From: Alphaproteobacteria bacterium | Lineage (GTDB): Bacteria > Pseudomonadota > Alphaproteobacteria > Rs-D84 | Length of the DNA stretch: 64,000 nucleotides | Reading direction: 5' to 3' | NCBI GenBank assembly: GCA_017511715.1 | Contig: JAFWJF010000001.1 | Location: 2,892 to 66,891 of the forward strand | Shown here: positions 2,611 to 61,437 of the stretch, one piece after another | How positions within the stretch are numbered: the stretch's first letter is position 1 | Layout of the letters: every line of letters begins with the position of its first letter | The notes under the pieces: model-generated | What the model was told of the DNA's origin: nothing | Seen by the model: the letters and a program-made list of their open reading frames with translations, nothing else | The model's database searches: none | Made by a program: the position numbers and the translations under genes

Positions 2611-2663
2611 AAAAAATAAATCGCCCAAAAGGCGATTATCTTTTGGTGCGGGCAAAGGGAATC
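2611..2663. repeat. direct repeat DR1: terminator hairpin plus duplicated 3' end of tRNA-Gly(CCC)
   Basis: 53-bp copy (one mismatch) of 2791-2843. It contains aaataaatcgcccaaaaggcgat and the last ~20 nt of the minus-strand tRNA (tggtgcgggcaaagggaatc). Confidence 0.8.
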
Positions 2664-2790
2664 ACTCGACACTTCGTGTCTGTGTGGCAATCGTGACGAT
2701 TTTGGTGCGTTACACTTCCAAAATCTACTGCTTGTCGAACCCTTCGTTGCTGATGCAACTCTGGTCGGGTTCGCTTCCCTGCCCTTGGTA
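2664..2790 (-). mobile_element. tRNA-3'-end-associated repeat element, copy 1 (127 bp, bounded by DR1/DR2)
   Basis: Its reverse complement aligns closely with 32130-32243 (caacgaag..gggttcgacaagcagtagRttttggaag..cgcaccaaaa..acgattgcc..). It is immediately followed, in tRNA orientation, by the duplicated tRNA 3' end. Confidence 0.65.
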
Positions 2791-2843
2791 AAAAAATAAA
2801 TCGCCCAAAAGGCGATTATTTTTTGGTGCGGGCAAAGGGAATC
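2791..2843. repeat. direct repeat DR2, overlapping the genuine 3' end of tRNA-Gly(CCC)
   Basis: Identical to 2611-2663 except one base. Confidence 0.8.
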
Positions 2844-2897
2844 GAACCCTCGTCTAAAGCTTGGGAAGCTTTCGTTCTGCCATTATACCATGCCCGC
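2824..2897 (-). tRNA. tRNA-Gly (anticodon CCC)
   Basis: Reverse complement gcgggcatggtataatggcagaacgaaagcttCCCaagctttagacgagggttcgattccctttgcccgcacca. Cloverleaf with 7-bp acceptor stem, T-loop GGTTCGATTCC, encoded CCA. Confidence 0.85.
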
Positions 2898-18594: not shown

Positions 18595-18742
18595 AGAGAA
18601 TACAAGCAAGGTTTTGGAAACGAAGTGCACCGAAACCGTTGCGGTATACACGCAGACACAAAGTGTCGAGTGAATACGAGAACAAATAATTAGAAAAATC
18701 TTAAAAAATCGAAGTTTACAAGATTTTTTTGATTTTAATTAT
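18595..18742 (+). repeat. tRNA-associated repeat element, copy without tRNA duplication (long variant); likely carries a promoter
   Basis: ggttttggaaacgaagtgcaccgaaaccgtt...cacgcagacacaaagtgtcgagtg matches 32186-32243 and the reverse complement of 2664-2720. The 3' 75 bp matches 38622-38697. A TTTACA-N17-ATTATT promoter-like sequence and a GGAGG RBS lie directly upstream of 18763. Confidence 0.55.
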
Positions 18743-18762
18743 TGTTTATCGAGGAGGAAAAA

Positions 18763-29713: not shown

Positions 29714-31141
29714 CTATTCTCTACCTTGGTACACAGTGTTCGAATAACCAAAACTGTGTTTTAATTTTTCAACCAATTTATTATAGTCCGGTTTTTTTGT
29801 TAATTTTTCACGCCATGCATTATACTCTGCAGATAAACGGGTTGTGTGTTTGCGAAAACTATCAGATAAATTCTTGTCAAAATCTGCCATAGTATTTATC
29901 TTAGACAATCTCTTTAATTCATCTGTTGCCCTTTTTTGCCATTTTTTTGCTTCTTCGATTTCAGTATTTTTACGTGCTTCATCGGGAAAACGCCAAGAAG
30001 GTATTTCTTCCTCTAGTCTACGCGTAGCGTTTTCTAAATCAAATTGGGCATTTACCCTTTCTGCGGACACGAGTTCCATAAATTGTGTTTCATACAATTT
30101 CATGAAATCAATCGGCGTATTGTTCATAATGCTGCGTTTTATTTCTGAAACAAATATCTGGGGTAACCCAGACGGTGTAGAAATGCTATCAACCAAAGAG
30201 CCTATGGTTGCAGCATTCATTATGCCACCATCTTTTTTGGTTAAAGATTCACCTTTTAGATACATGTAAACGCATTCGGACAAATTATCCATCTGGCAGT
30301 ATAACGAATAAGAATGTCCTTTGTTTGATGTGGCGCCTTTAATCCCCGCGGCAGTTGCGGCTTCGTATATAGCTACAACAGGTTCGCTGCCATCGCTGGT
30401 CGCAACTAATTCATGAAAATGCATCTTTTCCATCGCCATATGAACAACTGCATCGCGCAAAAAGTGTGACAAAATATCGAAACGACTTTCTTCAAACAGC
30501 CCACGCAAAAAAGCCTTTTTGTCTTTGGCAGAATCGTACATTTTCTTTACGCGTTCATCGAACCTAAATTCTTCTTCTACTTCATAATCTTTCAAATCAC
30601 CGTTTTTGTATTTTTCATATGTTGCACGATCGCTATCGTTCAGCATCTTTAATATTGTTTCAACTTCCTCTTCGGTATAATTATCGCGTTTGTATGTTGC
30701 GCCATGTTCATCAATTTTGAACAGAACATCATTAGATGGGCGAATAACAAAAGTGCTTTTTGGCAAGACCAATCCACGCTCTGGATTTGTTGACCAGTAT
30801 GTATCAACCGCGGCAATTTCTGCGGGATTACCGTTTTCTTTGACTATGTCTTTATAGGGGGACAAAATTACAATCGGCATATCATCCCAAGAACCCGATC
30901 CATGTGCTTTTACAACATGGTTTAATGTTGTATGAACAGTAGCACGCGGAAGGTCAAAATTCGTAGCCATTCCCGTTGATTGAATAAACATCAAACCGTC
31001 CGAATTTTTATGCGGCATATATTTTGTAGCATGAACGACACACCAATTATTCATATCAGACATATATTCTTCATCAGCATAATTTTTTTGTAATTTCTCT
31101 ACTGCCTGTCTAAAAAGCTCTATTCTATTCATAAAAATCAC
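29714..31141 (-). CDS. hypothetical protein (475 aa), lineage-specific
   Basis: Long intact ORF with no recognised motifs. Ends just before tRNA-Ser(CGA). Confidence 0.5.
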   Translation of the reverse strand: MIFMNRIELFRQAVEKLQKNYADEEYMSDMNNWCVVHATKYMPHKNSDGLMFIQSTGMATNFDLPRATVHTTLNHVVKAHGSGSWDDMPIVILSPYKDIVKENGNPAEIAAVDTYWSTNPERGLVLPKSTFVIRPSNDVLFKIDEHGATYKRDNYTEEEVETILKMLNDSDRATYEKYKNGDLKDYEVEEEFRFDERVKKMYDSAKDKKAFLRGLFEESRFDILSHFLRDAVVHMAMEKMHFHELVATSDGSEPVVAIYEAATAAGIKGATSNKGHSYSLYCQMDNLSECVYMYLKGESLTKKDGGIMNAATIGSLVDSISTPSGLPQIFVSEIKRSIMNNTPIDFMKLYETQFMELVSAERVNAQFDLENATRRLEEEIPSWRFPDEARKNTEIEEAKKWQKRATDELKRLSKINTMADFDKNLSDSFRKHTTRLSAEYNAWREKLTKKPDYNKLVEKLKHSFGYSNTVYQGRE

Positions 31142-31263: not shown

Positions 31264-31354
31264 GGAGATGTGGCAGAGCTGGTTGAATGCGCGTGACTCG
31301 AAATCACGTATACGGGCAACCGTATCGGGGGTTCGAACCCCTCCATCTCCGCCA
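31264..31354 (+). tRNA. tRNA-Ser (anticodon CGA)
   Basis: ggagatgtggcagagctggttgaatgcgcgtgactCGAaatcacgtatacgggcaaccgtatcgggggttcgaacccctccatctccgcca. Long variable arm, CCA encoded. Confidence 0.85.
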
Positions 31355-31369: not shown

Positions 31370-31948
31370 ATGAACAAAAATTTGCACGATATTATTTTTT
31401 CAATATACGAATATTTTGGCAAGGATAGAGAAAAACTTGATGAGGCGCGGTCCGAATTTTACCGTATTGGCGAAGCCAACCCACGTGTAGCCCTTATGTT
31501 ATATCGAGCATTATTGACAGATTATATAAACCAAAAAAAGAAAAAAATTGCTTTAGCCGATACAATGCGAATATATTTGATAGTTTCTACTAACGCAGAC
31601 TTTTATCTGATACACCCTATTGATGCATTGTCCATGCCAGAAGCAGATAAGTTCTATGAAACATATCACATAAGATATCCGCGTTCATCAACCATATCAA
31701 AAATCTTAATTAACATGAACAGATTTGATTCTGACAAACCAAAAGGCAAACTAGATTTTAAGAACAAATTGCGCGTAAAATATACAGTAAAAGATTCAAA
31801 CTATCCACACTCGTTCAATAAAAGGATGTTTTTACTGAATAAAAATCGCATCAGCAAAGATACCGTATATAAGAAATTAAGCGGATTAAACAAATTTTTC
31901 ATAGCACAAGCCTATAAAAAATACTTGAAAAAACAAAAATCTTTGTAA
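31370..31948 (+). CDS. hypothetical protein inside the tRNA-Ser islet
   Basis: 192-aa ORF (MNKNLHDIIF...) lying between the tRNA and the duplicated tRNA 3' end. Confidence 0.4.
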   Translation: MNKNLHDIIFSIYEYFGKDREKLDEARSEFYRIGEANPRVALMLYRALLTDYINQKKKKIALADTMRIYLIVSTNADFYLIHPIDALSMPEADKFYETYHIRYPRSSTISKILINMNRFDSDKPKGKLDFKNKLRVKYTVKDSNYPHSFNKRMFLLNKNRISKDTVYKKLSGLNKFFIAQAYKKYLKKQKSL

Positions 31949-31962
31949 AAAGAAATCACACA

Positions 31963-32108
31963 TCAAAATCATATGAATTAACAGATTTTACAATCGCATC
32001 AACCAATTTGTTTTGATGAGAATCTGATTTTAATAATTTTTCTTCGTTTTTGTTGGACAAATGCCCCAGTTCTATCAATGCACCCGGTACAGTCGAACGC
32101 AATACTGG
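31963..32108. repeat. direct duplicate of the 3' end of amiC (~145 bp, one mismatch), partner at 33898-34042
   Basis: tcaaaatcatatgaattaacagattttacaatcgcatcaacc...cgaacgcaatactg present twice. Confidence 0.85.
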
Positions 32109-32258
32109 TCATTTTTTATTTATCGTGTATGGGTATGGGGTTAGACGCTACAACGAAGTTGTTGGGTTCGACAAGCAGTAGGTTTTGGAAGCAAGGCGCA
32201 CCAAAACCGTTACGATTGCCCCGCAGGCGAAAGCCGAGGAAATCCTCCATCTCCGCCA
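32109..32258 (+). mobile_element. tRNA-3'-end-associated repeat element (short variant) ending in a duplicated tRNA-Ser(CGA) 3' end
   Basis: Core caacgaagttgttgggttcgacaagcagtaggttttggaagcaaggcgcaccaaaaccgttacgattgcc, about 85% identical to the reverse complement of 2664-2760. The final 15 nt cctccatctccgcca equal 31340-31354. Confidence 0.7.
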
Positions 32259-32288
32259 TAAATAAAAAAAGACACAAACCGGTCTTTT

Positions 32289-33875
32289 TTATCTGCTGTT
32301 GTCAGGAATTGTCTTGTCCTGTGTTTTTGTAGTTGTTTTTTTTAACAGTTTTTTTACTGCATTTTTCAATTTTTCTTTTTTGCTTTCCCCTTGCATTTTC
32401 AATTTCAGTTCGTTTGCGAAATCTTTAAACTTTTCATGCAAAACAATTGATACTTTGTGAGGTTCTGGTTTCACAAAAATATTATCACTCCATAAAAAAT
32501 CACTCCCTATTCCTTTAACATTTGGCAGATTTATCGACTTTAAGTTTGTATTTTCAGTTAAAAATTCATCGCCAATATCTTCTACTTTCGGTAAACTTAT
32601 TGATGTTAACATTTTATTGTAATACAAGAATCTATTACCAATTTTTTCAACTTTTGGCATGTTTATTGATGTTAATATTTCGTTATTTTCCAAGAAATAG
32701 TCGCCAATTCTTTTTACAGATGGCAAATCTATTGATGTCAATGCGTTATTAGAATTTAAGAAATGCATACCGATTTGTTCGACCTTTGGTAGCGCTATTG
32801 ATGATAACATCTTGTTCTTCACTAAGAAATCACAACCAATTTTCTTAACATTTGGTAAATTTATTGTTGTTAAACTTTTGTTGTGTTCTAAAAAAACGTC
32901 TTTAATTTTTTCTGTTGTAGCTAAATCTAATTCTATAATCTGCCCTTTGAATATTACAATACGATTGCCGTCCAGTGTGGATAACGTCGTTTCTTTTGTT
33001 ATTTTGTTATATGTTCTGGTAACTTTTTTCCCGTTAAATGCCAGATAAAAAACATCAAATGTTGTGCCGTAATCAATTGGTGAAGTTATTGTTTTATCTT
33101 TATCATTATAAATCATGCCATCAAACATGATTTCGCGGTCTTTGTTCAATCGTGTAATTGTGCCACCAGTAAAATAATAATCGTCACCGATGTAAATGTT
33201 GTCTCTTTCAAAACTGTACCAGACCAACTGGTCATTAACCCAAACATAGTTATTTGGCATTTTAATATCAGAAACATTGAATTCTACATCAAAGAATTTT
33301 CGCAATGAATTTGTAAGTCCCGGGATGATATTATCTGGGTTATTACCGAATGTTGCATCTGGATTGTTTACTGTATGGTTATAACGATTTTTAATAGATA
33401 TAAATCCACCACCCTTTGCAATTTGAATTGATATAACAGATGTTCCGTATTCGTCTTCGCGTTCTGGATTTGCGGATGGTTTTATTTTGTCTGCGCCACG
33501 TTTTACCGCATGAATTATATAAAAGTTTTCATGCCTATTGGGGTCACTGAAAGTACATAATTCTTCGCCGGGGCGATAATATTTTTTTATTGAATCTTTT
33601 TGTTTTTTACTTTCAACTATAAACGCGTCATAGCCCGCTTCATCTAACAATTCTAACGGCTTTTTATCTGTGGTATATTGGGATGCAGACATTATTTTAC
33701 ATTTAGACCGGATTGTTGGTATCAATCTTTCTAGATCTTCTAATTGTGTAAATTCTAATATGTGTTCAATATTTGGAACATCCAGCAATTCGGCATTGCG
33801 AAGAATCTTGGCAAAACGTTCACCGCGATGCTTTTTAATATTTTTAAAAACTTCGGCTGTATCTATTTCTTTCAT
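32289..33875 (-). CDS. BspA-type leucine-rich repeat protein with unknown N-terminal domain
   Basis: C-terminal tandem repeats of about 23 aa (LPNVKKIGCDFLVKNKMLSSIALPKVEQIGMHFL...). No signal peptide. Confidence 0.7.
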   Translation of the reverse strand: MKEIDTAEVFKNIKKHRGERFAKILRNAELLDVPNIEHILEFTQLEDLERLIPTIRSKCKIMSASQYTTDKKPLELLDEAGYDAFIVESKKQKDSIKKYYRPGEELCTFSDPNRHENFYIIHAVKRGADKIKPSANPEREDEYGTSVISIQIAKGGGFISIKNRYNHTVNNPDATFGNNPDNIIPGLTNSLRKFFDVEFNVSDIKMPNNYVWVNDQLVWYSFERDNIYIGDDYYFTGGTITRLNKDREIMFDGMIYNDKDKTITSPIDYGTTFDVFYLAFNGKKVTRTYNKITKETTLSTLDGNRIVIFKGQIIELDLATTEKIKDVFLEHNKSLTTINLPNVKKIGCDFLVKNKMLSSIALPKVEQIGMHFLNSNNALTSIDLPSVKRIGDYFLENNEILTSINMPKVEKIGNRFLYYNKMLTSISLPKVEDIGDEFLTENTNLKSINLPNVKGIGSDFLWSDNIFVKPEPHKVSIVLHEKFKDFANELKLKMQGESKKEKLKNAVKKLLKKTTTKTQDKTIPDNSR

Positions 33876-33890
33876 TTTGTTATTCTCTTT

Positions 33891-35084
33891 TTAAACGTCA
33901 AAATCATATGAATTAACAGATTTTACAATCGCATCAACCAATTTGTTTTGATGAGAATCTGATTTTAATAATTTTTCTTCGTTTTTGTTGGACAAATGCC
34001 CCAGTTCTATCAACGCACCCGGTACAGTCGAACGCAATACTGCAAATGGCGCATGACGGACAGATGGGCCTTTTTGTTGTTCTATGCTTGCGCGATTAAA
34101 CGATTTAGCACATCCATTTGCGTATTCTTCGCTTAATTCTGCAACAGCACGTTGTTGCAGTGAAGACAAGGCAACACGAATATCTTTGGAAAATTGTTCA
34201 AATCCGTTAACATCTATTTTATCCGCAGCATTTTCTGAATCTGCCAATTTTTGCGCTTCTTCGTCTGATGCTTTTTCAGACAAAGTATAAATTGAAAAGC
34301 CCTTCATGTCACGACTTGGGTTTGCGTTTGCATGCAAAGAAATGAATAAATCGGCGTGTTTCTTTTCGGCAAATTCTGCGCGTTCTGCCAATTTAAGAAA
34401 AGTATCATTAGAACGAGTCAGGTATGTTTTGTATCCGTTTGCTTCCAGTTTGCTTTTCAGTTTTTTTGCGACAGACAAAACAACCGTTTTTTCTTGTGTG
34501 CCACCACGCCCTGTACATCCCGGGTCTTTGCCACCATGTCCAGGATCAATAACTATGACACGTTTCGCAGAATTATTATTTGTTGTTGATTTTGTTTCTG
34601 ACTTTGTTGCTGTTTTTGCAGTCGTTGTTGATACGGGGGCTGATACGTCTATTCCGCGCCCTGTCCCGGCAGCAAAATCAATAACCAACCGATAATCGTT
34701 ATCGCCATTTGGTTCCAGAATCATTATTTGTTTTTTATCAATCGCGTCTATAAGCCCAGATAATGCACACAACACCTGTAATTTCGTACCATCTTGAATT
34801 TGGGTGACGCGCTTTATCATTGTGTCGTTTGCCAGTTTTGGCTGTATACTGCTGCTGCCCGAAGTGTTTGACAGATTTACAATTAACTGTTTGTCACCAT
34901 AAGATAAATCATATACTGGACGTGAAGAAGTTTCGATTACTAATCGTGTCTTGCCGCCTGGTTGCAGACCTGTTCTTATTGAACGCACCGCATTCGGTGC
35001 AGAAAAAGCAACACGTGGTGCAATCCCAACGACTAACGCACTGAAACTAACTGTCCTTAAAAGTTGTCTGCGACTTAATTTCAT
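33891..35084 (-). CDS. amiC: N-acetylmuramoyl-L-alanine amidase (AmiC-like; Tat signal, AMIN and Amidase_3 domains)
   Basis: Tat motif SRRQLLRTVSF and amidase core VIVIDPGHGGKDPG...LFISLHANA. The ORF could start at 35132. Confidence 0.9.
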   Translation of the reverse strand: MKLSRRQLLRTVSFSALVVGIAPRVAFSAPNAVRSIRTGLQPGGKTRLVIETSSRPVYDLSYGDKQLIVNLSNTSGSSSIQPKLANDTMIKRVTQIQDGTKLQVLCALSGLIDAIDKKQIMILEPNGDNDYRLVIDFAAGTGRGIDVSAPVSTTTAKTATKSETKSTTNNNSAKRVIVIDPGHGGKDPGCTGRGGTQEKTVVLSVAKKLKSKLEANGYKTYLTRSNDTFLKLAERAEFAEKKHADLFISLHANANPSRDMKGFSIYTLSEKASDEEAQKLADSENAADKIDVNGFEQFSKDIRVALSSLQQRAVAELSEEYANGCAKSFNRASIEQQKGPSVRHAPFAVLRSTVPGALIELGHLSNKNEEKLLKSDSHQNKLVDAIVKSVNSYDFDV

Positions 35085-35162
35085 GAGAATCATTATATCA
35101 AAAAAAAGACATGGTTTCAAGAAAAGTTGCAATAAAAAAAACCGCCACTGTGGCGGTTTGAT

Positions 35163-36413
35163 TTATCTGTTTATACAATTCGCAAACGATTGAGATATTA
35201 TTGATGTTTCTGTTGGCGTCAATGTTTGGACTGGCACGACATAACACCGCGAACTGTCGCGAATAACAAAGACTTTTGTGCCCATTTTATATGCATTTTG
35301 CATATTTGTCATTTGTGCAGAACTTAAAAATGAATTTGGCGTTGTCAATGCGTTGTTAGAAAGTCCAGCGTTCACAACTTGCTGTGCGCTTGCATAATCA
35401 TAGATTTCGGACATAGATGTTACTTCCATATATACCGACCAGTTTCCAGGTTTTTCAATTGACGGTTCTGTTGCCGCAGGAAATGCAACGTTTGCCATTA
35501 TCGCAACAGCGTTTTGTAAGTTAGGTGTCGTATTTGTTGTGGTTGGGTGTGCCACCTGATTCAACTGTAAATTATCACCACACGCTAAATTCATACGATT
35601 TGTATAACTTGCCAAAACAGCATCGACAGCGGCCTCCCAATTTGCACCTTTGGAATTCAGGTCAAGGCTTACTATCTTTTCTGCCCAACCCCAAATGCTT
35701 GCCCCTACATTTCCAGCATTAGCAAAACGAGTCACCATTTCGGCCGAACCACCCGCGACACCCGCACCACAATAATCTGTTAATTGCGTTGTTAACATGC
35801 TGTTGGTTTCGTTTCCATATGCCAACGCCACAGAATGACATGCCATGGCGGCTTCTAATTCGCGTCTACGTTGTACACACAAATCAGAATGAGATTTTGT
35901 CAGTTTGTCCGCCATATTTGCCATTGACAAATAAGACATCAATTCTTGTTGGACATAAGACGGGCAAAGACGTGCCGCTGTATTCATCCCGCCAGAACCG
36001 TTTTTAGTGATAGTATTATATTGTGGCAACAAAATTGAAGTATCTTTCTGCAAACAGAGTAATGTATAGTTATATAATTCACTTTCTGTTGCATACATAC
36101 AACGCCCAGAAGTTTTTCCCGGAACAATTGTTGTGTCCCCACAATAATCGGTTAAACAATTCATAATCTTTTGACGACATGCAGTATCAACATCAGGCTG
36201 GGTTATCATAAAATAAGTATTTCGTTGATTTTGTATGTATGCGTTAACCACACCATTTTGACCACGTGATCCGGCATTAGAATAACCAGTTGATGTAGTA
36301 TAAATAGTGGCACGCCCACCATCGTTTGCAACCGTTCCTGCAGATATTGCCATTGCCGCGCCAGACATTAAAAATGCGCCAACACAACCAAATGTTAACA
36401 AGCTTTTTTTCAT
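35163..36413 (-). CDS. secreted hypothetical protein (416 aa, Cys-containing)
   Basis: Signal peptide MKKSLLTFGCVGAFLMSGAAMA. Confidence 0.5.
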   Translation of the reverse strand: MKKSLLTFGCVGAFLMSGAAMAISAGTVANDGGRATIYTTSTGYSNAGSRGQNGVVNAYIQNQRNTYFMITQPDVDTACRQKIMNCLTDYCGDTTIVPGKTSGRCMYATESELYNYTLLCLQKDTSILLPQYNTITKNGSGGMNTAARLCPSYVQQELMSYLSMANMADKLTKSHSDLCVQRRRELEAAMACHSVALAYGNETNSMLTTQLTDYCGAGVAGGSAEMVTRFANAGNVGASIWGWAEKIVSLDLNSKGANWEAAVDAVLASYTNRMNLACGDNLQLNQVAHPTTTNTTPNLQNAVAIMANVAFPAATEPSIEKPGNWSVYMEVTSMSEIYDYASAQQVVNAGLSNNALTTPNSFLSSAQMTNMQNAYKMGTKVFVIRDSSRCYVVPVQTLTPTETSIISQSFANCINR

Positions 36414-38535: not shown

Positions 38536-38539
38536 TGAA

Positions 38540-38572
38540 TAAAAAAAGACCCAGCAGGGTCTGTTTTTTATT
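38540..38572 (+). terminator. rho-independent terminator after tRNA-Arg
   Basis: aaaaaaagacccagcagggtctgtttttt. Confidence 0.6.
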
Positions 38573-38575
38573 CAC

Positions 38576-38712
38576 TTATGAAGCACCGCGGGACAGGTCA
38601 GAGCGAAGCGCATGACCAATCCGCAGATAAACAATTAAGAAAATATTAAAAAATCGACGTTCACGAGATTTTTTTGATTTTATTTATTGTTTATCAAGGG
38701 CTGGGTGCGCCA
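38576..38712 (+). mobile_element. tRNA-associated repeat element (long variant) ending in a duplicated tRNA-Arg 3' end
   Basis: 38622-38697 is about 85% identical to 18667-18742. The upstream part is a diverged version of the core (aagcgca..acc.a.ccgcag). It ends with gctgggtgcgcca, equal to 38523-38535. Confidence 0.6.
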
Positions 38713-38876
38713 CAAATAAAAAGCCGGTCTTTTAATTATTTTTTTATATAAAAATGCGTCAAAAAGGCCGGCAACAAAAACAAACTGTTTTTTTAATTTT
38801 TTGCGTTATATCAATCAGAAATCGCATGTTATTAAAGCAAAAAATAAAACCGGTTGTTCAACCGGTTTTTATCTGC

Positions 38877-41011: not shown

Positions 41012-44000
41012 ATGGCGGGAATCAAGCCTTTTTATAACATGTTAAAGCGTTTAATATTTGCAATATTCGTAGTGTTTACTGCAAATTCTGCATTTGCGGC
41101 GTGTGCTAGCAATCAAATTGATGTAAATGGTGATGGAACCAAATGTGAGGATGTGAAATTCACATTAGACCTTTCCAGAAGTTCAAACATAACGGTTTTC
41201 AATTTCTTTATGTCTGCCAAAGGAACATTTTATGTCGATTGCGGCAATGGCGGAACATTGACCAGCAATTCTGCCACTAATTACCCGGTATCGGGCAAAA
41301 CAGTTAACCGTACCTATGGAACGGGTAATGTAAGGTACTCTTGTACATGGGCCAATGGCAGCAAGACACAAACAATTAGGTTTGGTGGGGTTGCAGAAGG
41401 ATATAGCACCAATACAAGCACCGCCGCAATACGTTTTAATTATAATGCAACACAAGCGGCATATATAACATCAGTTTCTGGTAATTTGTCCGCTATGTTC
41501 CCGTATATTACAAACAATGCACAAAGTGGTGCACAACCAAGATTTTATATGACTTTTGATAAAGCGACAAACCTGAAAAGTATCCCCGATACATTGTTTG
41601 CAAATTACACAACACCGGCAACAAATATGTTTCATTCTACGTTTAACAATTCAGGATTGACATCAATACCTAGCAATTTGTTTTCCACCATATCTGGCGC
41701 AGCAGAAGGTCTGTTTTCTAGCACATTTAATGGATGTACCGGCTTAACATCAATACCTGGCAATTTGTTTTCCACCATATCTGGCGCAGCAAACAGCTTG
41801 TTCTATGGCACATTTCAGAATTGTACCGGCTTAACATCAATACCTAGCAATTTGTTTTCCGGGGTGTCTGGCGGGGCAAGTTCTATGTTTTTTTTCACGT
41901 TTAAAGGATGTACCGGCTTAACATCAATACCTGGCAATCTGTTTTCCACCATATCTGGCGCAGCAAACAGCTTGTTCTATGGCACATTTAGTGGATGTAC
42001 CGGCTTGACATCAATACCTAGCAATTTGTTTTCCACCATATCTGGCGCAGCAGACGGTCTGTTTTCTAACACATTTAATGGATGTACCGGCTTAACATCA
42101 ATACCTGGCAATCTGTTTTCCGGGGTGTCTGGCGGGGCAAGTTCTATGTTTTCTTACACGTTTAATGATTGCAGTTCGATATCTGCAATACCGGCAGGAC
42201 TATTTTCCGGTGTAAACCAGGCGGCAACAGGTTTGTTCATGAATGCATTTTCTGGTTCTGGGGTAAGTGGTTATATACCACCGACCACATTTTCCGGGTT
42301 GATTTCGGCGGGCAGCCCACAAAGTTCAGATATGTGGCTAGATACATTTTCATACACGAATTTAACAGCGACTTGTCCACAGGGAACAACGCAGTATATG
42401 ACAGGATACGAAGGTGGCACTAATGGTCCTACATGGAATGGGATGGTTTCTTGTACGCCAAATTCGACCACTGCAATTGCAGTAACTTTGGACAGTGCAG
42501 GCGCGACCACAAATGCCACACCTTCGACAATATATCTTCGATACGAGGATCGTTGGTACAGTAATTCTGCCCTTTCTGTTCAGATAAGTTCGCTTAACAC
42601 CATTCCATCAAAAACGGGATATATGTTCGGCGGTTTTTACACTCAACCAAATGGTTCCGGAATACAAATTATCAATTCAAATGGTTACATCTTGCAAACC
42701 ATGGAAGCAATCACGTTTACAACCACACCGACAACCGTGTATGCTTATTGGATAGAACCAAAGTTCACATTAACAACATCATCGACCAACAGTTTTCAAT
42801 TTAAACTATCTGCCGCTGGTACATTCTATGTAGACTGCGGAAACGGTGGAACGTTAAGTGGAACCGGGGCGTCCGGAAACACAATTACGCGTGCCGACAC
42901 AACCGAAGCGACATATACATGTTCATGGACCAACAGTGCAACACGAACAATCAGATTCAGCGGTGCCGCAACCGGGTATAATTCGTCTTATGGTGTTGCA
43001 GCAATAAAGTTTAATATGACAGATGCTGCCACTGATGCAAACGCAGCATTGTTAACGGGTATGTCTGGCACACTGGGGTCAATATTCGGAACAGTTGCCA
43101 CCGCCAGCACAGGCTCTGTTCAACCAGCATTTAATAAGACATTTTATGGTGCATCAAACCTTAATGCGTCAATACCGTCAAACTTTTTTGCGGGCGTTCA
43201 TGGTGCACCACGCGGGGGAATGTTTCAACAAACCTTTTCTGGATGCAGCAGTTTGACCGGCTCTATCCCAGAAACCCTATTCTGTGAAAACACGACCAAT
43301 CCAAGTGCATCAAACTGTATCTATGGAGCACCAATTGGGGCAATGTTTGAACATACATTCCTTGGTTGTAGTGGTTTGACGGGTTCTATCCCAGAAAAAC
43401 TGTTTGTGGGTATCCATGGCGCGCCTGCAAGTTATATGTTTTCTCAGACATTTAATGGATGTAGTGGTTTGACGGGTTCTATCCCAGAAAAACTATTCTG
43501 TCAAAACACAACCAGCCCATCTGCATCAAACTGTATCTATGGCGCACCGGCATCATCTATGTTTGCCTTGACATTTTATGGATGTAGTGGATTAACTGGC
43601 TCTATTCCAGAAAAACTGTTCGTTGGTATCCATGGTGCACCAGCAAATAATATGTTTCAACAAACATTCTATAATTGTAGTGGTTTAACTGGCTCTATTC
43701 CAGAAAAACTATTCTGTCAAAACACAACCAGTCCATCTACATCAAACTGTATCTATGGCGCGCCGGCAAGAGCTATGTTTTTTCACACTTTTTCTGGTTG
43801 TACAAATTTAACTGGTTTGATACCACAAAACCTTTTCAAAGGGATATACGGCGCGCCGGCAGAAAATATGTTTAATGGTACATTTAGGAATGACAACAAA
43901 TTGACAGGAATAACCGACGGCACAACTACCACAACCTATGTTCCATCAACATTCCTTAGCGCGATTAACAACACAAGCGCAACAACACCAGCAACAGGAA

Positions 44001-47000
44001 TGTTTACTGGTACGGGGCTTGCATCGTCTTGTCCGACGTGGGCAGCCGCCGCAACACCGGTATGGGCAACTGATGCTGGTAAGCCATGGTGCGAACCAGA
44101 TATAAAATTCACATTAAACACATTAGCGACTAACAGTTTTCAATTTAAACTATCTGCCGCTGGTACATTCTATGTAGACTGCGGAAATGGCGGAAGGTTA
44201 AGTGTGGTAAACGGTAACGGAACAGTTTCTGGGAATACGATAACAAAAACAGGTACTTCGTGGGGGACATTTGAATGTTCTTGGGATGATACCGAACCAC
44301 AAACACTTCGATTTGGTGGTGCAGCATCAGGGTACACTGCAAGCCAATCAGGCGGTGCAATAAGATTTAATGTTTCTGATACAAACCAAGATGATGATAC
44401 AAACGCACCAAAGATCACCGGAATATCCGGGTCATTGGGTGCAATATTTGGAACCATAGATGGCACGGTTTCCCCAACAGGCGCGGAATCACAACCAAGA
44501 TTCTATGGAACATTTTGGGCTGCATCCAACCTTGCTGGTTCAATACCAGACGAGCTTTTCTATGGCATACATGGCACACCAATATCATATATGTTTAACC
44601 GTACTTTCCGTGGTTGTAGCAGTTTAACTGGAAAAATACCTGAAACATTATTCTGTCAAAACACAAGCAACCCAAATGCATCAAACTGTATTTATGGCGC
44701 ACCGACACAACAGATGTTTTACATGACTTTTCACGGATGTAGCGGTTTGACAGGAAATTCTTCAACCGGATATGCCATTCCTGCAAAATTATTTGCAGGT
44801 ATTCGTGGTGATCCATCTTCAGCATCGAGTGTGTTTGGTTATACATTTTCCGGTTGTAGTGGTTTAAATGGGCAAATACCTGAAACATTATTCTGTCAAA
44901 ACCCGAACAGCCCCAGTGCATCAAACTGTATCTATGGTGCGCCGGCATCAAATATGTTTTCATTTACATTCCAAGGATGCACTGGTTTGACAGGTGACGG
45001 TATACATGCCGTTCCAGTAAAGTTGTTTGCAGGTCTCCATGGCGCGCCGGCACCAAAAATGTTTCAATCTACTTTTACTGGCGACACAGGATTGACAGGG
45101 GAAATTCCACCTGCGCTATTCTGTGGTGGTAATACGAATAATCTGAGTAATCCATCTGCCTCAAACTGTATCTATGGCACCCCGGCAACAGAAATGTTTA
45201 ATAGTACGTTTTATAATACTAGAATAACACATGTAGATAAAAATATGTTTGCGGGGATATCCGGTACTTCTGCGGAAAAGATGTTCTATCGTACATTTAA
45301 AAGTTGTAGTTCATTGTCGTACATAAATGATACCTTTAACACAAAAGCGACAACTTACATTCCGTCAGATTTCCTTGGTGGCATTACTGATGGATCCGTG
45401 ACAAATGACGCAACAGAAATGTTCACAGGTACGGGACTCACATCACCTTGTCCGACGGGGACAGCCACCGCAACACCGGCGTGGGCAACGGATGCTGCCA
45501 AACCATGGTGTGCACCCAACACATATAGCATTACATATGATATGAATGGTGGAACAAACTATTCCGGCGCACCTACAACATATGTTTATGGGACAAGTAC
45601 AACAATTAATGGCGCACCAACAAAATCAGGCTATATATTCAAAGGATGGACTGGTTCTAATGGTTCAACACCACAACCAACCGTGACGATTGGTGCAAGT
45701 GCCACCGGGGCAAAATCTTACACTGCGAACTGGGAAACGGCAAAATTCACATTAACCACATCAGGAATGAGCGATTTCAGCTTCAAGCTTTCGCCAAAGG
45801 GAACATTCTATGTCGATTGCGGAAATGGTGGAACGTTAAGTGGTCAAAGCGCGTCCGGCAGTACAGTTTCCGTCAACACAATCACACGTACAACCACAAC
45901 CGCAACAACATATACTTGTAGCTGGGCCAGTAGTGCTGGAAACAAAACAATATCTTTTGGCGGGTCTGCCACAAATACCACAACAACATATAACTCAGAT
46001 ACGAACGTACCAGCAATACATTTTTTGGAAAGTAGTAATGCAGACTCAATCAAAAGCGTATCTGGTAATTTGTCCGCGATGTTCCCGTACATCACATCAA
46101 ATGCACAAAGTGGTGCTCAACCAAGGTTTAACAGAACATTTTATGATGCAACACACTTGACCAGTGTTCCCGATACATTATTCGCAAATTATACCACACC
46201 CGCAACATATATGTTTAGTAATACATTTGCAAGTTCTGGGTTAACATCGATACCGGCGGGACTGTTTTCCCGCATAACCGGTGCAGCAACCGGTTTGTTC
46301 GAGGGTACATTTAGCGGTGCGCGCTTAACATCAGTGCCGGCGGGGCTATTTGCCGGGATATCTGGTGTGGCAGACAGTTTGTTTAATAGCACATTTACTG
46401 GCACACCAATAACATCTATACCAGAGAATTTGTTTGCCGGGGTATCGGGGTCTGCATCTGGCGTGTTTTCTTACGCTTTTTATCGTTGCGCTAGCCTGGC
46501 CACCATAACAAATGGGCAAACAAGTACGACCTATGTTCCGGGAACGTTCCTTAGTGATGTTACTGGCAATGACAATTACATTGGTGCCGACATGTTTGGC
46601 ATGACAGACTTGGCTGACACCTGTCCATATGGTATGGGCGATACAACACCGGCATGGGCAAGTGATGCTGGTAAACCATGGTGTTCTCCCAATACATATA
46701 CAATAACCTATTCTGCCGGTCAAGGTGGCGTTGGTGCAAACCAAACGGAAAACGTTGTGTTTGGCACCACATTTACCACAAAATCTGCAAATACGTTTAG
46801 TAAACCACACGCTACATTTACAGGCTGGGATACTCTTGAATACTCTTCAGCCTGGACACAACCAGATACAACATATACTTATGATTTGCCGTCAGATATT
46901 ACGATTGCAGCACAATGGACATGTGATTCTGGATACACATTAAATAACAGCACCGGAAATTGCGATGCCAACAGTATCACATGTGATCCAGGTTTTTATC

Positions 47001-50000
47001 TGAAAGGCAACACTCTAACATGTACGGCATGTCCTGCTGGTAAATATTGCGCGGGTGGCACATACACTCATAACGGTACGGACTTAGGTATAACTGGCGA
47101 TGTTACGGCGGGATATTTTGCTTCTGGTGGTGCAAAGGTCGCAGCCCCAACCAGCAACAGCGATTGCTTAAGCGGTAATACATGCGGTAAATGTACGACA
47201 GATTCTGCCACTGGTCGTCCTGCGTATTCAACAGCTGGAGCAGCAAGTTGTTCGGCATGCCCTGCAGTAACGGGCGATATGGCAAGTCGTGTTATCTCTT
47301 ATGCAGGTTGGTGGAGCAACGATATACATAATGCGGTTACAGGATGCGCTGCCTGGTTCAATGATACAGATAATGATGCAACATTCAGAGTGTATTGCTA
47401 TTATAACACTACAGATGGTGCCTATGGTGGTTCAAACAGCATTTGCCAAGTATGGCATCCGACTGCTTGTGCAGCAGGAAAATATGATACGATAGAATCA
47501 ACAACGGAATGGCTTGCTTCTGCTAATTACACACGTGGGAAAGGTGTAGATTTCATGAATGGCAAGGTTTGTACAAACACAGATGCAGGTTATTACAGTG
47601 CCGAAGGTTCTTTGACACAAACCGCATGTGCAGCAGGCTCTTACAGCAGTGCGGGCGCAAGTACATGTACGGCATGTCCGGCGGGTAAGACAACCGCTGG
47701 CACTGGAACGGCTTTCAACACTAATGCAAACACTACATGTTCAACAAGTTGTTCGTCTATCGCAAACCTGAAAACTTGGAACAGTCAGACTTGGAACAGC
47801 GCAAATAATACAGTGACTAATTTGTGCACGGTTGCAACTTGTAATGCTGGGGCATATAAGTCTGGTAACACTTGTCCGGTTTGTGGTGCGAATTCTTGGT
47901 CAGATGATGGTGCAAGCAGCTGTACAGCATGTAACACGACCAATGGATACACGAACAGTGGAACAACAGCGGCGGCTCATGCTGGTCAGTACAGTTGTAA
48001 GACCACGTGTGCGGCAGGTAAACAAGTTGCAAGTCCTGGCGAGGCATGTTCTACCCCCGGTGGCAGTTGGTATTCTGTTCAACACACTGTAGGGGAAGGA
48101 TCGACATCCGCTGTTCAGCTGATAAGTAATCCGAATGTATTTGATTGTTTAATTGGTGGCTATGCAACACCTGACACAACTATACAAACAGACCACGATG
48201 CAAGCACAGATTGTAGGATAACATGTTCTGCAGGAAGCAGAGTCACAACGCCTAATGGTATGTGTACAGCGATAACGAGTGGCAATGTATATATGCTTGA
48301 ACATACTGTTGCCCAGGGATCTACATCACCAAAAGCAACATCATGCCCAACAAGTTATACAATCAGCGGTTCTACACAAGCAGACCACGATGCGAAGAAC
48401 GATTGTAAGATAACATGTGGTGCTGGATATGTTGTTGACACAGAAGATGGTAATTGTATTGTGCCAGAAGAAGGTTTCCAGACAGGGATACATACAGTAA
48501 GCGCAGGAAGTGTGACACGAATAGATAAAGATCCAGGCATGAACGTACCCCGTGCAGGAATATGGTATGACTGTTTGACTAACTATAGTGCGACAGGCAA
48601 AAGCGCAATCAACCACGATCAAAGAAGTGATTGTAAAATAACATGTAATGCGGGAACACAGATTGCAACTAACAATGCAACTAGGTGCACGACACCGACA
48701 GGAAGTTGGTACACAGAACAACATACAGTAAGTGCAGGCAGCACGAGTAGTCCAACCAGTTGTGCGACAGGCTATGCAACAGCAAACACATCAACCGCAA
48801 CAGACCACGATGCGCAAGCCGATTGTAAGATTGGGTGCAGTGCTGGATATTATATACCAACAGCAGGTGGTGGATGCAAGGCATGTCCTGCTGGTAAATA
48901 CTGCACAGCAATAAGTGGTATTGCAGAAACTGCAACATCTGCCGCGACAGGAAACATAACGGCTGGGTATTTTGCTTCTGGTGGTGCAAAGGTCGCAACC
49001 CCAACAAGTAGCAGCGATTGCTTAAGCGGTAATACATGCGGCACATGCCAGGGACAGAATGGACCAAATGGTCGTCCACTTTATACTGATGCAACCGGCG
49101 GCGCAGCACAATGTTCTGAGTGTCCAGCAGTAGAAGCATCTTTAACAAGTCGTGTTGTCTCATATGGTTATTGGCCAGATACGCGTGACAGAGGGATACA
49201 AAATTGTTCTGCGAAATTCACTGATACAGATCCTGATGCTACGTTTACTACGGAATGTTATTATAGAGGCTCTAATTATCATGAATCCTTTAACTGTCAA
49301 ACCGCCGCACCAACCGCTTGTGCTGCGGGTAAGTATGAAACTATCAGAACAACAGACAAATGGGGCACATATTACGCCATTGGTACTGGAGTAGATCATA
49401 TGAACGGTAAGGTTTGTACGGATACAGATGCAGGTTATTACAGTGCCGAAGGTTCTTTGACACAAACCGCATGTGCAACGGGTTCATACAGCAGTGCTGG
49501 CGCAAGTACATGTACGGCATGTCCGGCGGGTAAGACAACCGCTGGCACCGGAACAGCTTTCAACACTAATGCAAACACTACATGTTCAACAAGTTGTTCG
49601 TCTATCACAAACCTAAAAACTTGGAACAGTCAGACATGGAACAGTTCAAATAATACAGTGACTAATTTGTGCACGGTTGCGACTTGTAATGCTGGGGCAT
49701 ATAAGTCTGGTAACACTTGTCCGGTTTGTGGGGCGAATTCTTGGTCAGATGCTGGTGCAAGCAGCTGTACAGCATGTCAAACAGATTATACCAACAGCGG
49801 AACAACAGCGACAAACCATGCAGGAAACGCATCTTGTAAGATAACTGTATCTGGCGGTCATTATATTGGCACACCCGGTCAAAACAGCACAAACTGGGGA
49901 ACATGTGATGCAGGAACCTTTAAGGCGCAACATACCGTGGCATATGGCAGCACAAGTAGTTGTTCGAACTGCGAAGGCAGAACGAAGTACAGTGCGGCAG

Positions 50001-61335: not shown

Positions 61336-61348
61336 GGTGCGAGCAAAG
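61333..61348. repeat. duplicated 3' end of tRNA-Gly(GCC) (tttggtgcgagcaaag), partner at 61436-61451
   Basis: 16-bp exact direct repeat flanking an 87-bp insert. Confidence 0.75.
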
Positions 61349-61437
61349 TACTTCGGCAACTAGCGTTGCCTCGCCTCGCAACTCGCCCCTTTGCCGCAAA
61401 AATCAAAAACCGCCCTAACGGACGGTTTTAAAATTTT

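Follow-up and report, generated by a model that had tools for sequence, protein, structure and literature searches.

How did a 145-nt piece of the 3' end of amiC, which encodes an N-acetylmuramoyl-L-alanine amidase, come to be repeated almost exactly on the far side of the leucine-rich repeat (LRR) gene that lies beside it? The question is raised by a stretch of 64,000 nt from contig JAFWJF010000001.1 (assembly GCA_017511715.1, positions 2,892 to 66,891) of an alphaproteobacterium of the order Rs-D84; we call this whole stretch the window and number all positions within it. Based on comparisons with related loci, we propose that the window is probably a fusion of two natural haplotypes of one locus, H1 and H2, and that the extra amiC end is a flank of H1 that hitch-hiked with it, best explained by one homologous crossover and one illegitimate join. 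The duplication is thus a recombination scar of a known kind, part of the ordinary mosaicism of genomes.

A repeat search of the window reveals a direct repeat of 148 nt at 99% identity and a spacing of 1935 (31960-32107 and 33895-34042). Pairwise alignment places 145 nt in uninterrupted register (31963-32107 against 33898-34042), the sole mismatch being T at 32079 against C at 34014, and at either end of both copies the similarity is lost abruptly. Judged by its length and its single mismatch in 64 kb, such a match cannot be due to chance. Copy B (33898..34042, minus strand) is the 3' end of the intact amiC and comprises its last 48 codons. Copy A (31956..32107, minus strand, the repeat proper being 31963-32107) is an orphan amiC 3' fragment of 48 codons with a stop of the H1 type (...GAT GTG TGA), and contains an open reading frame (ORF) of 48 aa at 31956..32102 on the minus strand. 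A preliminary description of this DNA had noted a near-exact 145-bp duplicate with one mismatch and had listed a tRNA-associated repeat, a duplicate of the tRNA-Ser 3' end and a 528-aa LRR gene in the 1.8 kb between the copies, and all of this is borne out: the 1790 nt in question contain a repeat that we call D, a copy of the 3' end of tRNA-Ser(cga), a degenerate terminator and an LRR_5 gene of 528 aa.

Is the duplication real? It is, and it is found in at least four other independent assemblies. Both copies, with the same distinguishing single-nucleotide polymorphism (SNP), are present in L001 (ENA ERZ28653461), L175 (ENA ERZ27257205) and L176 (JGI 3300032030). The first of these, a metagenome scaffold, differs from the window by one base across the 14 kb surrounding the duplication, plus a variation in the repeat number of a giant gene, and L175 is 98.0% identical to the window over 8343 ungapped nt. 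Read on the coding strand of amiC, the SNP is invariably A in copy A and G in copy B; allele A is also carried by L172 and, among the more distant relatives compared, by L089, L092 and L006, and allele G by L086 and L174. In addition, a Logan unitig (L002, SRR31077516) equals window 32049-33927 at 100% and spans the two inner junctions. Its ends lie exactly k-1 = 30 nt beyond the SNP and 30 nt inside copy B, where a k=31 graph must stop on meeting a true repeat. Given that the composite occurs in this independent unitig and in L001, L175 and L176, it is not a misassembly, the outcome that would have undone the earlier account of the locus.

What were the parents of this composite? Using as bait the lineage-specific neighbour gene p416 (416 aa, 35163..36413), we collected 80 metagenome loci, annotated with tblastn and ARAGORN. 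Haplotype H1 has the order tRNA-Ser > ORF193 > < amiC and is seen in L172 and L186. In L172 (Logan SRR15023578; AmiC 98% identical in amino acids) the layout is p416 > amiC > < ORF193 < tRNA-Ser(cga), with neither the LRR gene nor D; its backbone is 93.5% identical to the window in nucleotides, against 99.17% for the 844 nt of amiC end, ORF193 and tRNA that correspond to window 32107-31264. Copy A and the intact amiC end of L172 agree at all but 1 of 148 nt, and in L172 too this end adjoins ORF193; given that contiguity, copy A is the natural flank of ORF193 in H1. The layout of L186 (AmiC 90%) is the same, its ORF193 homologue being 50% identical in amino acids. An amiC-tRNA-Ser arrangement lacking the LRR gene, which the preliminary description had suggested looking for, is in fact common among relatives, these two included. 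Haplotype H2 runs tRNA-Ser > terminator > D > 15-20-nt copy of the tRNA-Ser 3' end > terminator < LRR gene < amiC, and is represented by L174 and L173. L174 (AmiC 84%) has a single amiC end abutted by the start of the LRR gene and, read from tRNA-Ser(cga), presents TAAATAAAAAAAGACCCAACGGGTCGATTTTTTATTTATC (terminator), D, ...GAGGGAATCCTCCATCTCCGCCA (the tRNA 3' copy), a second terminator and the LRR stop codon; in L173 (AmiC 89%) the sequence likewise finishes with this tRNA copy and terminator. The two haplotypes diverge naturally at the outer end of the repeat (31963 in copy A, 33898 in copy B), two codons short of the amiC stop. The ending is GAT GTG TGA in copy A and L172, and in copy B it is GAC GTT TAA followed by AAAGAGAATAACAAAATG, as in L086 and L175. 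Comparison with these last two loci shows that the H2-type amiC end and the 15-nt spacer (33876..33897, minus strand) are identical in both except at 33897, where the GAC codon of the window has C and the two loci have T; the spacer itself, between amiC and the LRR gene, is shared with L086 and L173.

The point at which the haplotypes meet, junction J1, lies at 32107..32108 and, from comparison of the window with L174 and copy B, reads CAATACTG/GTCATTTTTT, the slash marking the join, with at most 1 nt of microhomology. In its wider context the fusion is ...CGCAATACTG/GTCATTTTTTATTTATCGTGTATGGG..., amiC to the left and, to the right, H2 from the 3' half of a terminator stem onward; right of 32107 the window follows L174 base for base from that half stem, and left of it the window follows amiC. 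The corresponding parental sequences are GACCCAACGG/GTCGATTTTTTATTTATCGTGTATGGG in the intact H2 of L174 and CAATACTG/CAAATGG in amiC copy B. At the join itself amiC has ...ACTG/CAAA, H2 ...ACGG/GTCG and the product ...ACTG/GTCA, and there is no homology between the parents. The tRNA-Ser terminator remnant that precedes D in H2, a 3' stem half and T-run, occupies 32108..32124 (plus strand; aligned by eye with L174 and L098). Because J1 falls inside the terminator stem of the LRR haplotype, it is an illegitimate join. In net terms H2 has lost 22 nt, in whose place stand 753 nt from H1, and D starts 795 nt after tRNA-Ser(cga) instead of the normal 61-92 nt, the excess being ORF193 plus the amiC' segment. 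Both parental haplotypes, the positions of the junctions and the presence of the composite in several samples are thereby demonstrated.

We infer from these comparisons a mechanism in which DNA from a conspecific strain would have been taken in by a single event, with a homologous crossover at one end and a homology-free join at the other. An H1 segment consisting of tRNA-Ser, ORF193 and the last 148 nt of amiC would have become joined to H2 inside the tRNA-Ser terminator stem. The inner repeat boundary (32107 in copy A, 34042 in copy B) would then be the illegitimate breakpoint, and the outer boundary (31963 and 33898) the natural divergence of the haplotypes. As the two amiC ends differ at 1 of 145 nt, the parents were conspecific or nearly so. 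An H1 fragment may have entered an H2 chromosome with its anchor in, or to the left of, tRNA-Ser; alternatively, an H2 fragment may have entered an H1 chromosome with its anchor in amiC or p416, either route being simple in its topology. Anchor sequence is available on either side, tRNA-Ser and amiC being common to H1 and H2, and the L172 sequence ends at the tRNA. The blocks differ in age: the LRR gene is 95% identical to that of L086 (flanks about 82%), and the ORF193 block is 99.2% identical to L172 (backbone 93.5%). The latter disparity favours a transfer of H1 into H2, and the fact that H1 is the state of the nearest relatives, L172 and L186, favours a transfer of H2 into H1.

A sharp breakpoint at 34042 was sought in strain comparisons, in which the divergence falls within about 34110-34040, too gradually to be of use. 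L175 carries the same composite, and its identity to the window is 95.7% in p416 and the part of amiC outside the repeat (34043-35788) and 97.4-100% from copy B leftwards. This step in identity points to a further recombination boundary near the amiC 3' end.

How does the proposed event compare with known systems? Homology-facilitated illegitimate recombination (HFIR) has been described in Acinetobacter, Streptococcus pneumoniae, Pseudomonas stutzeri and E. coli conjugation, and by definition combines a homologous crossover on one side with an illegitimate join on the other (PMC3240628). The segment in the window would likewise have one end in sequence shared by the parents, on the tRNA-Ser or the amiC side, and its other join (at 32107 to 32108) is without homology; in both cases foreign or allelic DNA is added beside a conserved anchor. 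The window differs in that donor and recipient are two alleles of one locus, so that the amiC end was duplicated, and in that the case is read from sequence. Orphaned 3' fragments also remain in displacement arrays, as in rhs C-terminal displacement and the type VI secretion system effector-immunity loci of Vibrio cholerae, for which an HFIR-type mechanism has been proposed (PMC5361080). There, as here, alternative cassettes occupy one locus beside a conserved gene, and an older cassette is left behind with an orphaned 3' fragment. The orphan in the window, however, is the end of a housekeeping amidase and not of a polymorphic toxin, and the locus displays one displacement step and no evident toxin-immunity logic.

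Could the LRR gene, together with D, instead be a mobile cassette that inserted site-specifically into the amiC 3' end and supplied a replacement end, with the repeats as attachment sites attL and attR? Integrative elements typically have direct repeats by which the 3' end of their target gene is restored, a tRNA 3'-end copy such as that in the block is typical of att sites, and the LRR gene bears signs of horizontal exchange. However, the LRR gene occupies the same position in L086, L173 and L174, each of which has only one amiC end; copy A adjoins ORF193 just as the amiC end does in the LRR-less L172; and the inner junction cuts a terminator stem instead of coinciding with a D repeat boundary. 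Moreover, the LRR ORF is alone in 32108-33897, there is no recombinase gene within the 1.8-kb block, and the Pfam matches of the neighbouring genes include no integrase. We consider this origin very unlikely. The same three LRR-bearing loci qualify the earlier suggestion that the LRR gene was inserted next to amiC and left the duplicate as its footprint: the gene is indeed accessory (48 of 49 relatives searched lack it here) and the duplicate is indeed the footprint of a rearrangement, but not of an LRR insertion. A transposon target-site duplication was likewise considered and rejected, as the repeat is 145 nt long, there are no terminal inverted repeats at 32108 and 33897, and there is no transposase.

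An assembly artefact would require that co-existing H1 and H2 strains were chimerically joined through their shared amiC end. The source is a metagenome and H1 and H2 strains do co-exist in similar samples; yet the join of 32107 to 32108 occurs in neither H1 nor H2, so that a graph walk through shared sequence cannot make it, the same junction recurs at 100% identity in the independent unitig and in three assemblies from different samples, and a fixed SNP tells the two copies apart. An artefact is therefore extremely improbable. The geometry, about 145 nt present once at a gene's 3' end and once more close by, and the sole difference within the window, A in the orphan copy against G in the gene copy on the coding strand, also recall the template and variable repeats of a diversity-generating retroelement, here acting on the amiC C-terminus. 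The region has no reverse transcriptase or accessory gene, though, the gene copy of L175 and L176 also differs at a T position, and the 1-2 differences in total are few; the comparative data account for the copy fully, which leaves this idea with practically no weight.

A fusion of H1 to H2 by crossover and illegitimate join nevertheless has points that tell against it. The microhomology of about 1 nt at J1 is at the low end for reported illegitimate joins, and the mechanism would call for RecA and for an uptake of linear DNA by these uncultured bacteria, through competence, conjugation, transduction or another route. In addition, a circle could have been excised from H2, when the terminator was joined illegitimately to amiC position -148, and then integrated in Campbell fashion into the amiC end of H1. 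This would give exactly the observed topology, with direct repeats of the homology segment flanking the insert and J1 as the circle junction, just as a single event would. It is unlikely all the same, since two rare events are needed where one suffices and no source is known here for a non-replicating circle of 1.9 kb. Lastly, the H1 of L172 could in principle be a secondary deletion product of the composite; the 50%-diverged ORF193 that L186 has at this position speaks for an old H1. A predictable consequence of the 145-nt direct repeats is that they would permit a RecA-dependent loss of D and the LRR gene, resulting in an H1-like locus.

What is the LRR gene that separates the two copies? 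It lies at 32289..33875 on the minus strand and encodes 528 aa, a conserved N-terminal domain of 330 aa followed by BspA-type LRR_5 repeats. The C-terminal 180 aa match Pfam LRR_5 (PF13306) at 2.9e-17 and 63.2 bits, against a gathering cut-off of 27.7. In an AlphaFold model (mean predicted local distance difference test, pLDDT, 84.5) the C-terminal solenoid matches TpLRR (6mlx; Foldseek E 3.5e-5) and Bacteroides BspA-like LRR structures. The LRR_5 repeats and the superposition on TpLRR are what the protein shares with BspA-type LRR proteins, such as the surface LRR proteins of Bacteroides and Faecalibacterium, from which it differs by its additional N-terminal domain. That domain, in which the motif R139-D141-Y143-G144...K162-N163-R164-Y165-N166-H167 is invariant, has no relative in Pfam, NCBIfam, PDB or IMG/VR, and beyond Pfam LRR_5 the protein has no match in NCBIfam or PADLOC; no signal peptide is obvious by eye, no predictor having been applied. 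The protein family is large in metagenome-assembled genomes (MAGs) of gut Alphaproteobacteria, and paralogues are convergent to other tRNA-Ser genes, namely tga (L003/L005, with the same layout of D, tRNA copy and terminator) and gga (L004).

At this locus the LRR gene is accessory. No LRR gene lies near amiC in 48 of the 49 relatives that the p416 bait recovered and whose sequence extends to amiC, the exception being L113, in which a relative of its N-terminal part follows just after amiC; its distribution here is limited to the window species, L086-88, L173, L174 and L113. Between the window and L086 the gene is 95.1% identical over 1587 nt without gaps. Per 100 nt the identity is 87-99% from the amiC stop to the LRR stop and 65-90% through prfB, p416 and amiC, the flanking genes being at about 80-88%, and the high-identity block begins in the 100-nt window 33905-33806. 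This jump in identity over the flanks indicates a recent exchange between lineages. The gene had earlier been called a late arrival: a recent exchange supports part of that idea, and the gene may have arrived before or after the ORF193 block. The gene is probably co-transcribed with amiC, since only 15 nt and no terminator separate them. The LRRs had also been thought to be of the same BspA type as those of a giant surface protein encoded in the window, which did not hold: the giant ORF of 3533 aa has no LRR_5 match even at E<=10, and BLASTP against the LRR protein gives E=1.8. This giant ORF (41012-51613, plus strand) is made up of several families of internal repeats, whose periods are 87, 216 and about 1400-1850 nt, and among Pfam families only Flg_new passes; its repeat number differs between the window and L001.

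The D repeat in the block may matter more than the duplication itself. Its body (32125..32243, plus strand; nhmmer 131 bits, alignment and covariation) consists of a Ser-type 5' part and a conserved core with two covarying hairpins. It is followed by an exact 15-nt copy of the tRNA-Ser(cga) 3' end, CCTCCATCTCCGCCA (32244..32258, plus strand; repeat search), which is found at the same position in L174, L173, L003 and L098. Next comes a degenerate hairpin with T and A runs (32259..32292), a terminator shared by the D unit and the LRR gene, of which L174 and L173 have the intact version GACCCAACGGGTC; a simple terminator scan does not call it. A D profile finds 29 places in the window and related loci, 24 of them immediately downstream of a tRNA gene of the same strand, either as the first unit or as the second of a tandem. 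The inserted H1 segment explains why three further copies, in the window, L001 and L175, are 795 nt from tRNA-Ser(cga), and the exceptions are a partial orphan at 18609-18673 (plus strand) and copies on short contigs (L002, L176) that end before any tRNA. The tRNAs bearing D are Gly(ccc), Ser(cga, tga, gga), Arg(ccg, tct), Pro(tgg) and His(gtg). Sites of the family in the window are 2611-2897 (minus), 32108-32292 (plus) and the orphan just mentioned; further members occur in L003, L098, L109-L111, L119, L123, L126, L136, L150, L163, L168 and L174. The units, often in tandem, have a constant order: tRNA 3' end and terminator, a segment that resembles this 3' end in reverse complement, the core, a T-loop-to-CCA copy of the tRNA, and a terminator. 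In the core hairpins 93.5% of cells are paired, against 31-48% with slid partners, 11 of 16 pairs have double changes, and none of 500 shuffles reaches the observed value; covariation thus strongly backs both hairpins. When the 5' end of D is paired with the 3' end derived from the tRNA, the energy is -13.7 kcal/mol for cognate and -10.8 for non-cognate partners (standard deviation 2.9), which is suggestive only, and we claim no closing helix.

How widespread are such units, and what are they? Regardless of whether the core is present, a copy of the last 13 nt of the tRNA lies within 450 nt downstream in 22 of the 112 distinct tRNA loci of the clade. In 20 of these it is 143-182 nt downstream, in one 313 nt, and in the remaining case, the mini-unit of the window tRNA-Gly(gcc), 90 nt. 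D has no Rfam match at E<=5 (window) or E<=1 (L003, L109, L123, L174), and its core pattern gave only chance matches in IMG/VR, inside phage coding regions. No integrase was seen near D units in the loci fetched, which do not cover whole genomes, and in the literature we found no described tRNA-3'-flank repeat of this design, an absence that is no proof of novelty. Integrative elements that target tRNA or tmRNA genes are known for direct repeats of the 3' end, tandem accretion and integrase-less, att-flanked cis-mobilizable elements (CIMEs) (PMC3146451, PMC5704250), and by analogy the layout of D fits T-loop-targeted site-specific integration with accretion. As in these elements, the D unit (and the D unit only) sits 3' of a tRNA with a distal T-loop-to-CCA copy and the intact tRNA proximal, the proximal side supplies a new terminator, units are in tandem, and a filled and an empty site can be paired: L172 is the empty site for the unit at window tRNA-Arg(ccg), lacking 38545-38699. 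Unlike them, the units are about 110-190 nt long, without genes and without an integrase nearby in the loci seen, their core forms covarying hairpins, and their 5' end resembles the reverse complement of the 3' end of their own tRNA. Tentatively, and with somewhat less than even confidence, we suggest that D belongs to an undescribed family of 110-190-nt units present at the 3' flank of about one fifth of the tRNA genes sampled in this clade of reduced genomes, the core with its two hairpins being carried by the D subfamily. Such a unit may be a new miniature T-loop-targeting integrative element, a structured RNA that mimics a tRNA end, or both, and may make tRNA flanks, that of the amiC and tRNA-Ser locus among them, hot spots of recombination.

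Two other D-type sites in the window deserve mention. At tRNA-Arg(ccg) (38536-38713, plus strand) a 165-nt insert ends in a second GCTGGGTGCGCCA and holds an AT-rich module of 82 nt, 83% identical to 18673-18754 (plus strand), with inverted ends GATAAACAAT..ATTGTTTATC; the module looks like a small miniature inverted-repeat transposable element nested in a D-type unit. After tRNA-Gly(gcc) (61338-61437, minus strand) a mini-unit has a 48-nt body (GCGGCAAAGGGGCGAG..., with the hairpin GGCAACGCTAGTTGCC), then CTTTGCTCGCACCA and a second terminator.

What are the implications for the organism? The AmiC protein is 79% identical to the homologue of Candidatus Enterousia merdequi, and Enterousia belongs to the alphaproteobacterial order Rs-D84, gut bacteria with genomes under about 1 Mb (PMC12306168). 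The recovery of both parental haplotypes from public data means that an orphan duplicate of a gene end in a MAG can be read as a recombination scar, and not as the footprint of a mobile element or a misassembly. Genomes under 1 Mb in the Rs-D84, Enterousia-like group (PMC12306168) keep a variable locus in active exchange, and as this locus carries LRR, giant-protein and orphan genes next to a tRNA, it bears on how reduced gut symbionts vary proteins that are probably exposed. The D family, being structured, linked to tRNA 3' ends, covarying, absent from Rfam and without an integrase seen nearby, may be of greater consequence than the duplication.

The conserved backbone of the locus is tRNA-Arg(ccg) ... 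p416 > amiC > [variable] tRNA-Ser(cga) > Ogt > < AhpC > AccAD > tRNA-Ser(gct). Among relatives the variable stretch from amiC to tRNA-Ser(cga) extends from about 40 nt up to 6 kb; in this clade of gut Alphaproteobacteria with small genomes, near Candidatus Enterousia, it is a hot spot of recombination. Many relatives have a gap of 40-80 nt with the tRNA in either orientation and no LRR gene (L092, L006, L129, L130, L134, L137, L140, L141, L143, L149, L156, L157, L163, L166, L169 and L170); other gaps are filled by a 250-aa ORF (L089/L090), by giant ORFs of 2055 and 1327 aa (L098, L167) or by different content. The gene amiC itself (33891..35084, minus strand, 397 aa) matches Amidase_3 in Pfam at 6.3e-48, and its 100% identical cluster is named amidase by NCBI; its longest ORF form (33891..35132, minus strand) has 413 aa, and the called start differs from that of this form. 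A contig scan with AmiC was swamped by the generic DPGHGGKD motif and gave L006 (Ca. Enterousia merdequi) as its only useful match. The bait gene p416 has no match in NCBIfam or PADLOC. The anchor of the variable locus, tRNA-Ser(cga) (31264..31354, plus strand; ARAGORN, Rfam tRNA 56.3 bits), is 100% identical in L089-L091. The H1 cargo ORF193 (31370..31948, plus strand, from the ORF list) is an orphan gene without a match in Pfam, NCBIfam or PADLOC; it falls into only two protein clusters among 5.8e9 proteins, with no relatives beyond the window type and the L186 homologue.

Two further features of the tRNA-Ser(cga) surroundings were observed. The orientation of the tRNA between amiC and ogt varies, L092, L006, L129, L130, L141, L143 and others contrasting with L134, L137, L140 and the window, a pattern implying that the tRNA gene itself has been inverted repeatedly. 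Between tRNA-Ser(cga) and ogt the window also has an ORF of 475 aa, p475 (29714-31141, minus strand), which has no family match (NCBIfam and PADLOC blank), is absent from L086, L089 and L174, and has homologues of 67% amino acid identity in L092 and 35% in L156. Judged by this pattern, p475 is a second variable insert, on the 5' side of tRNA-Ser(cga).

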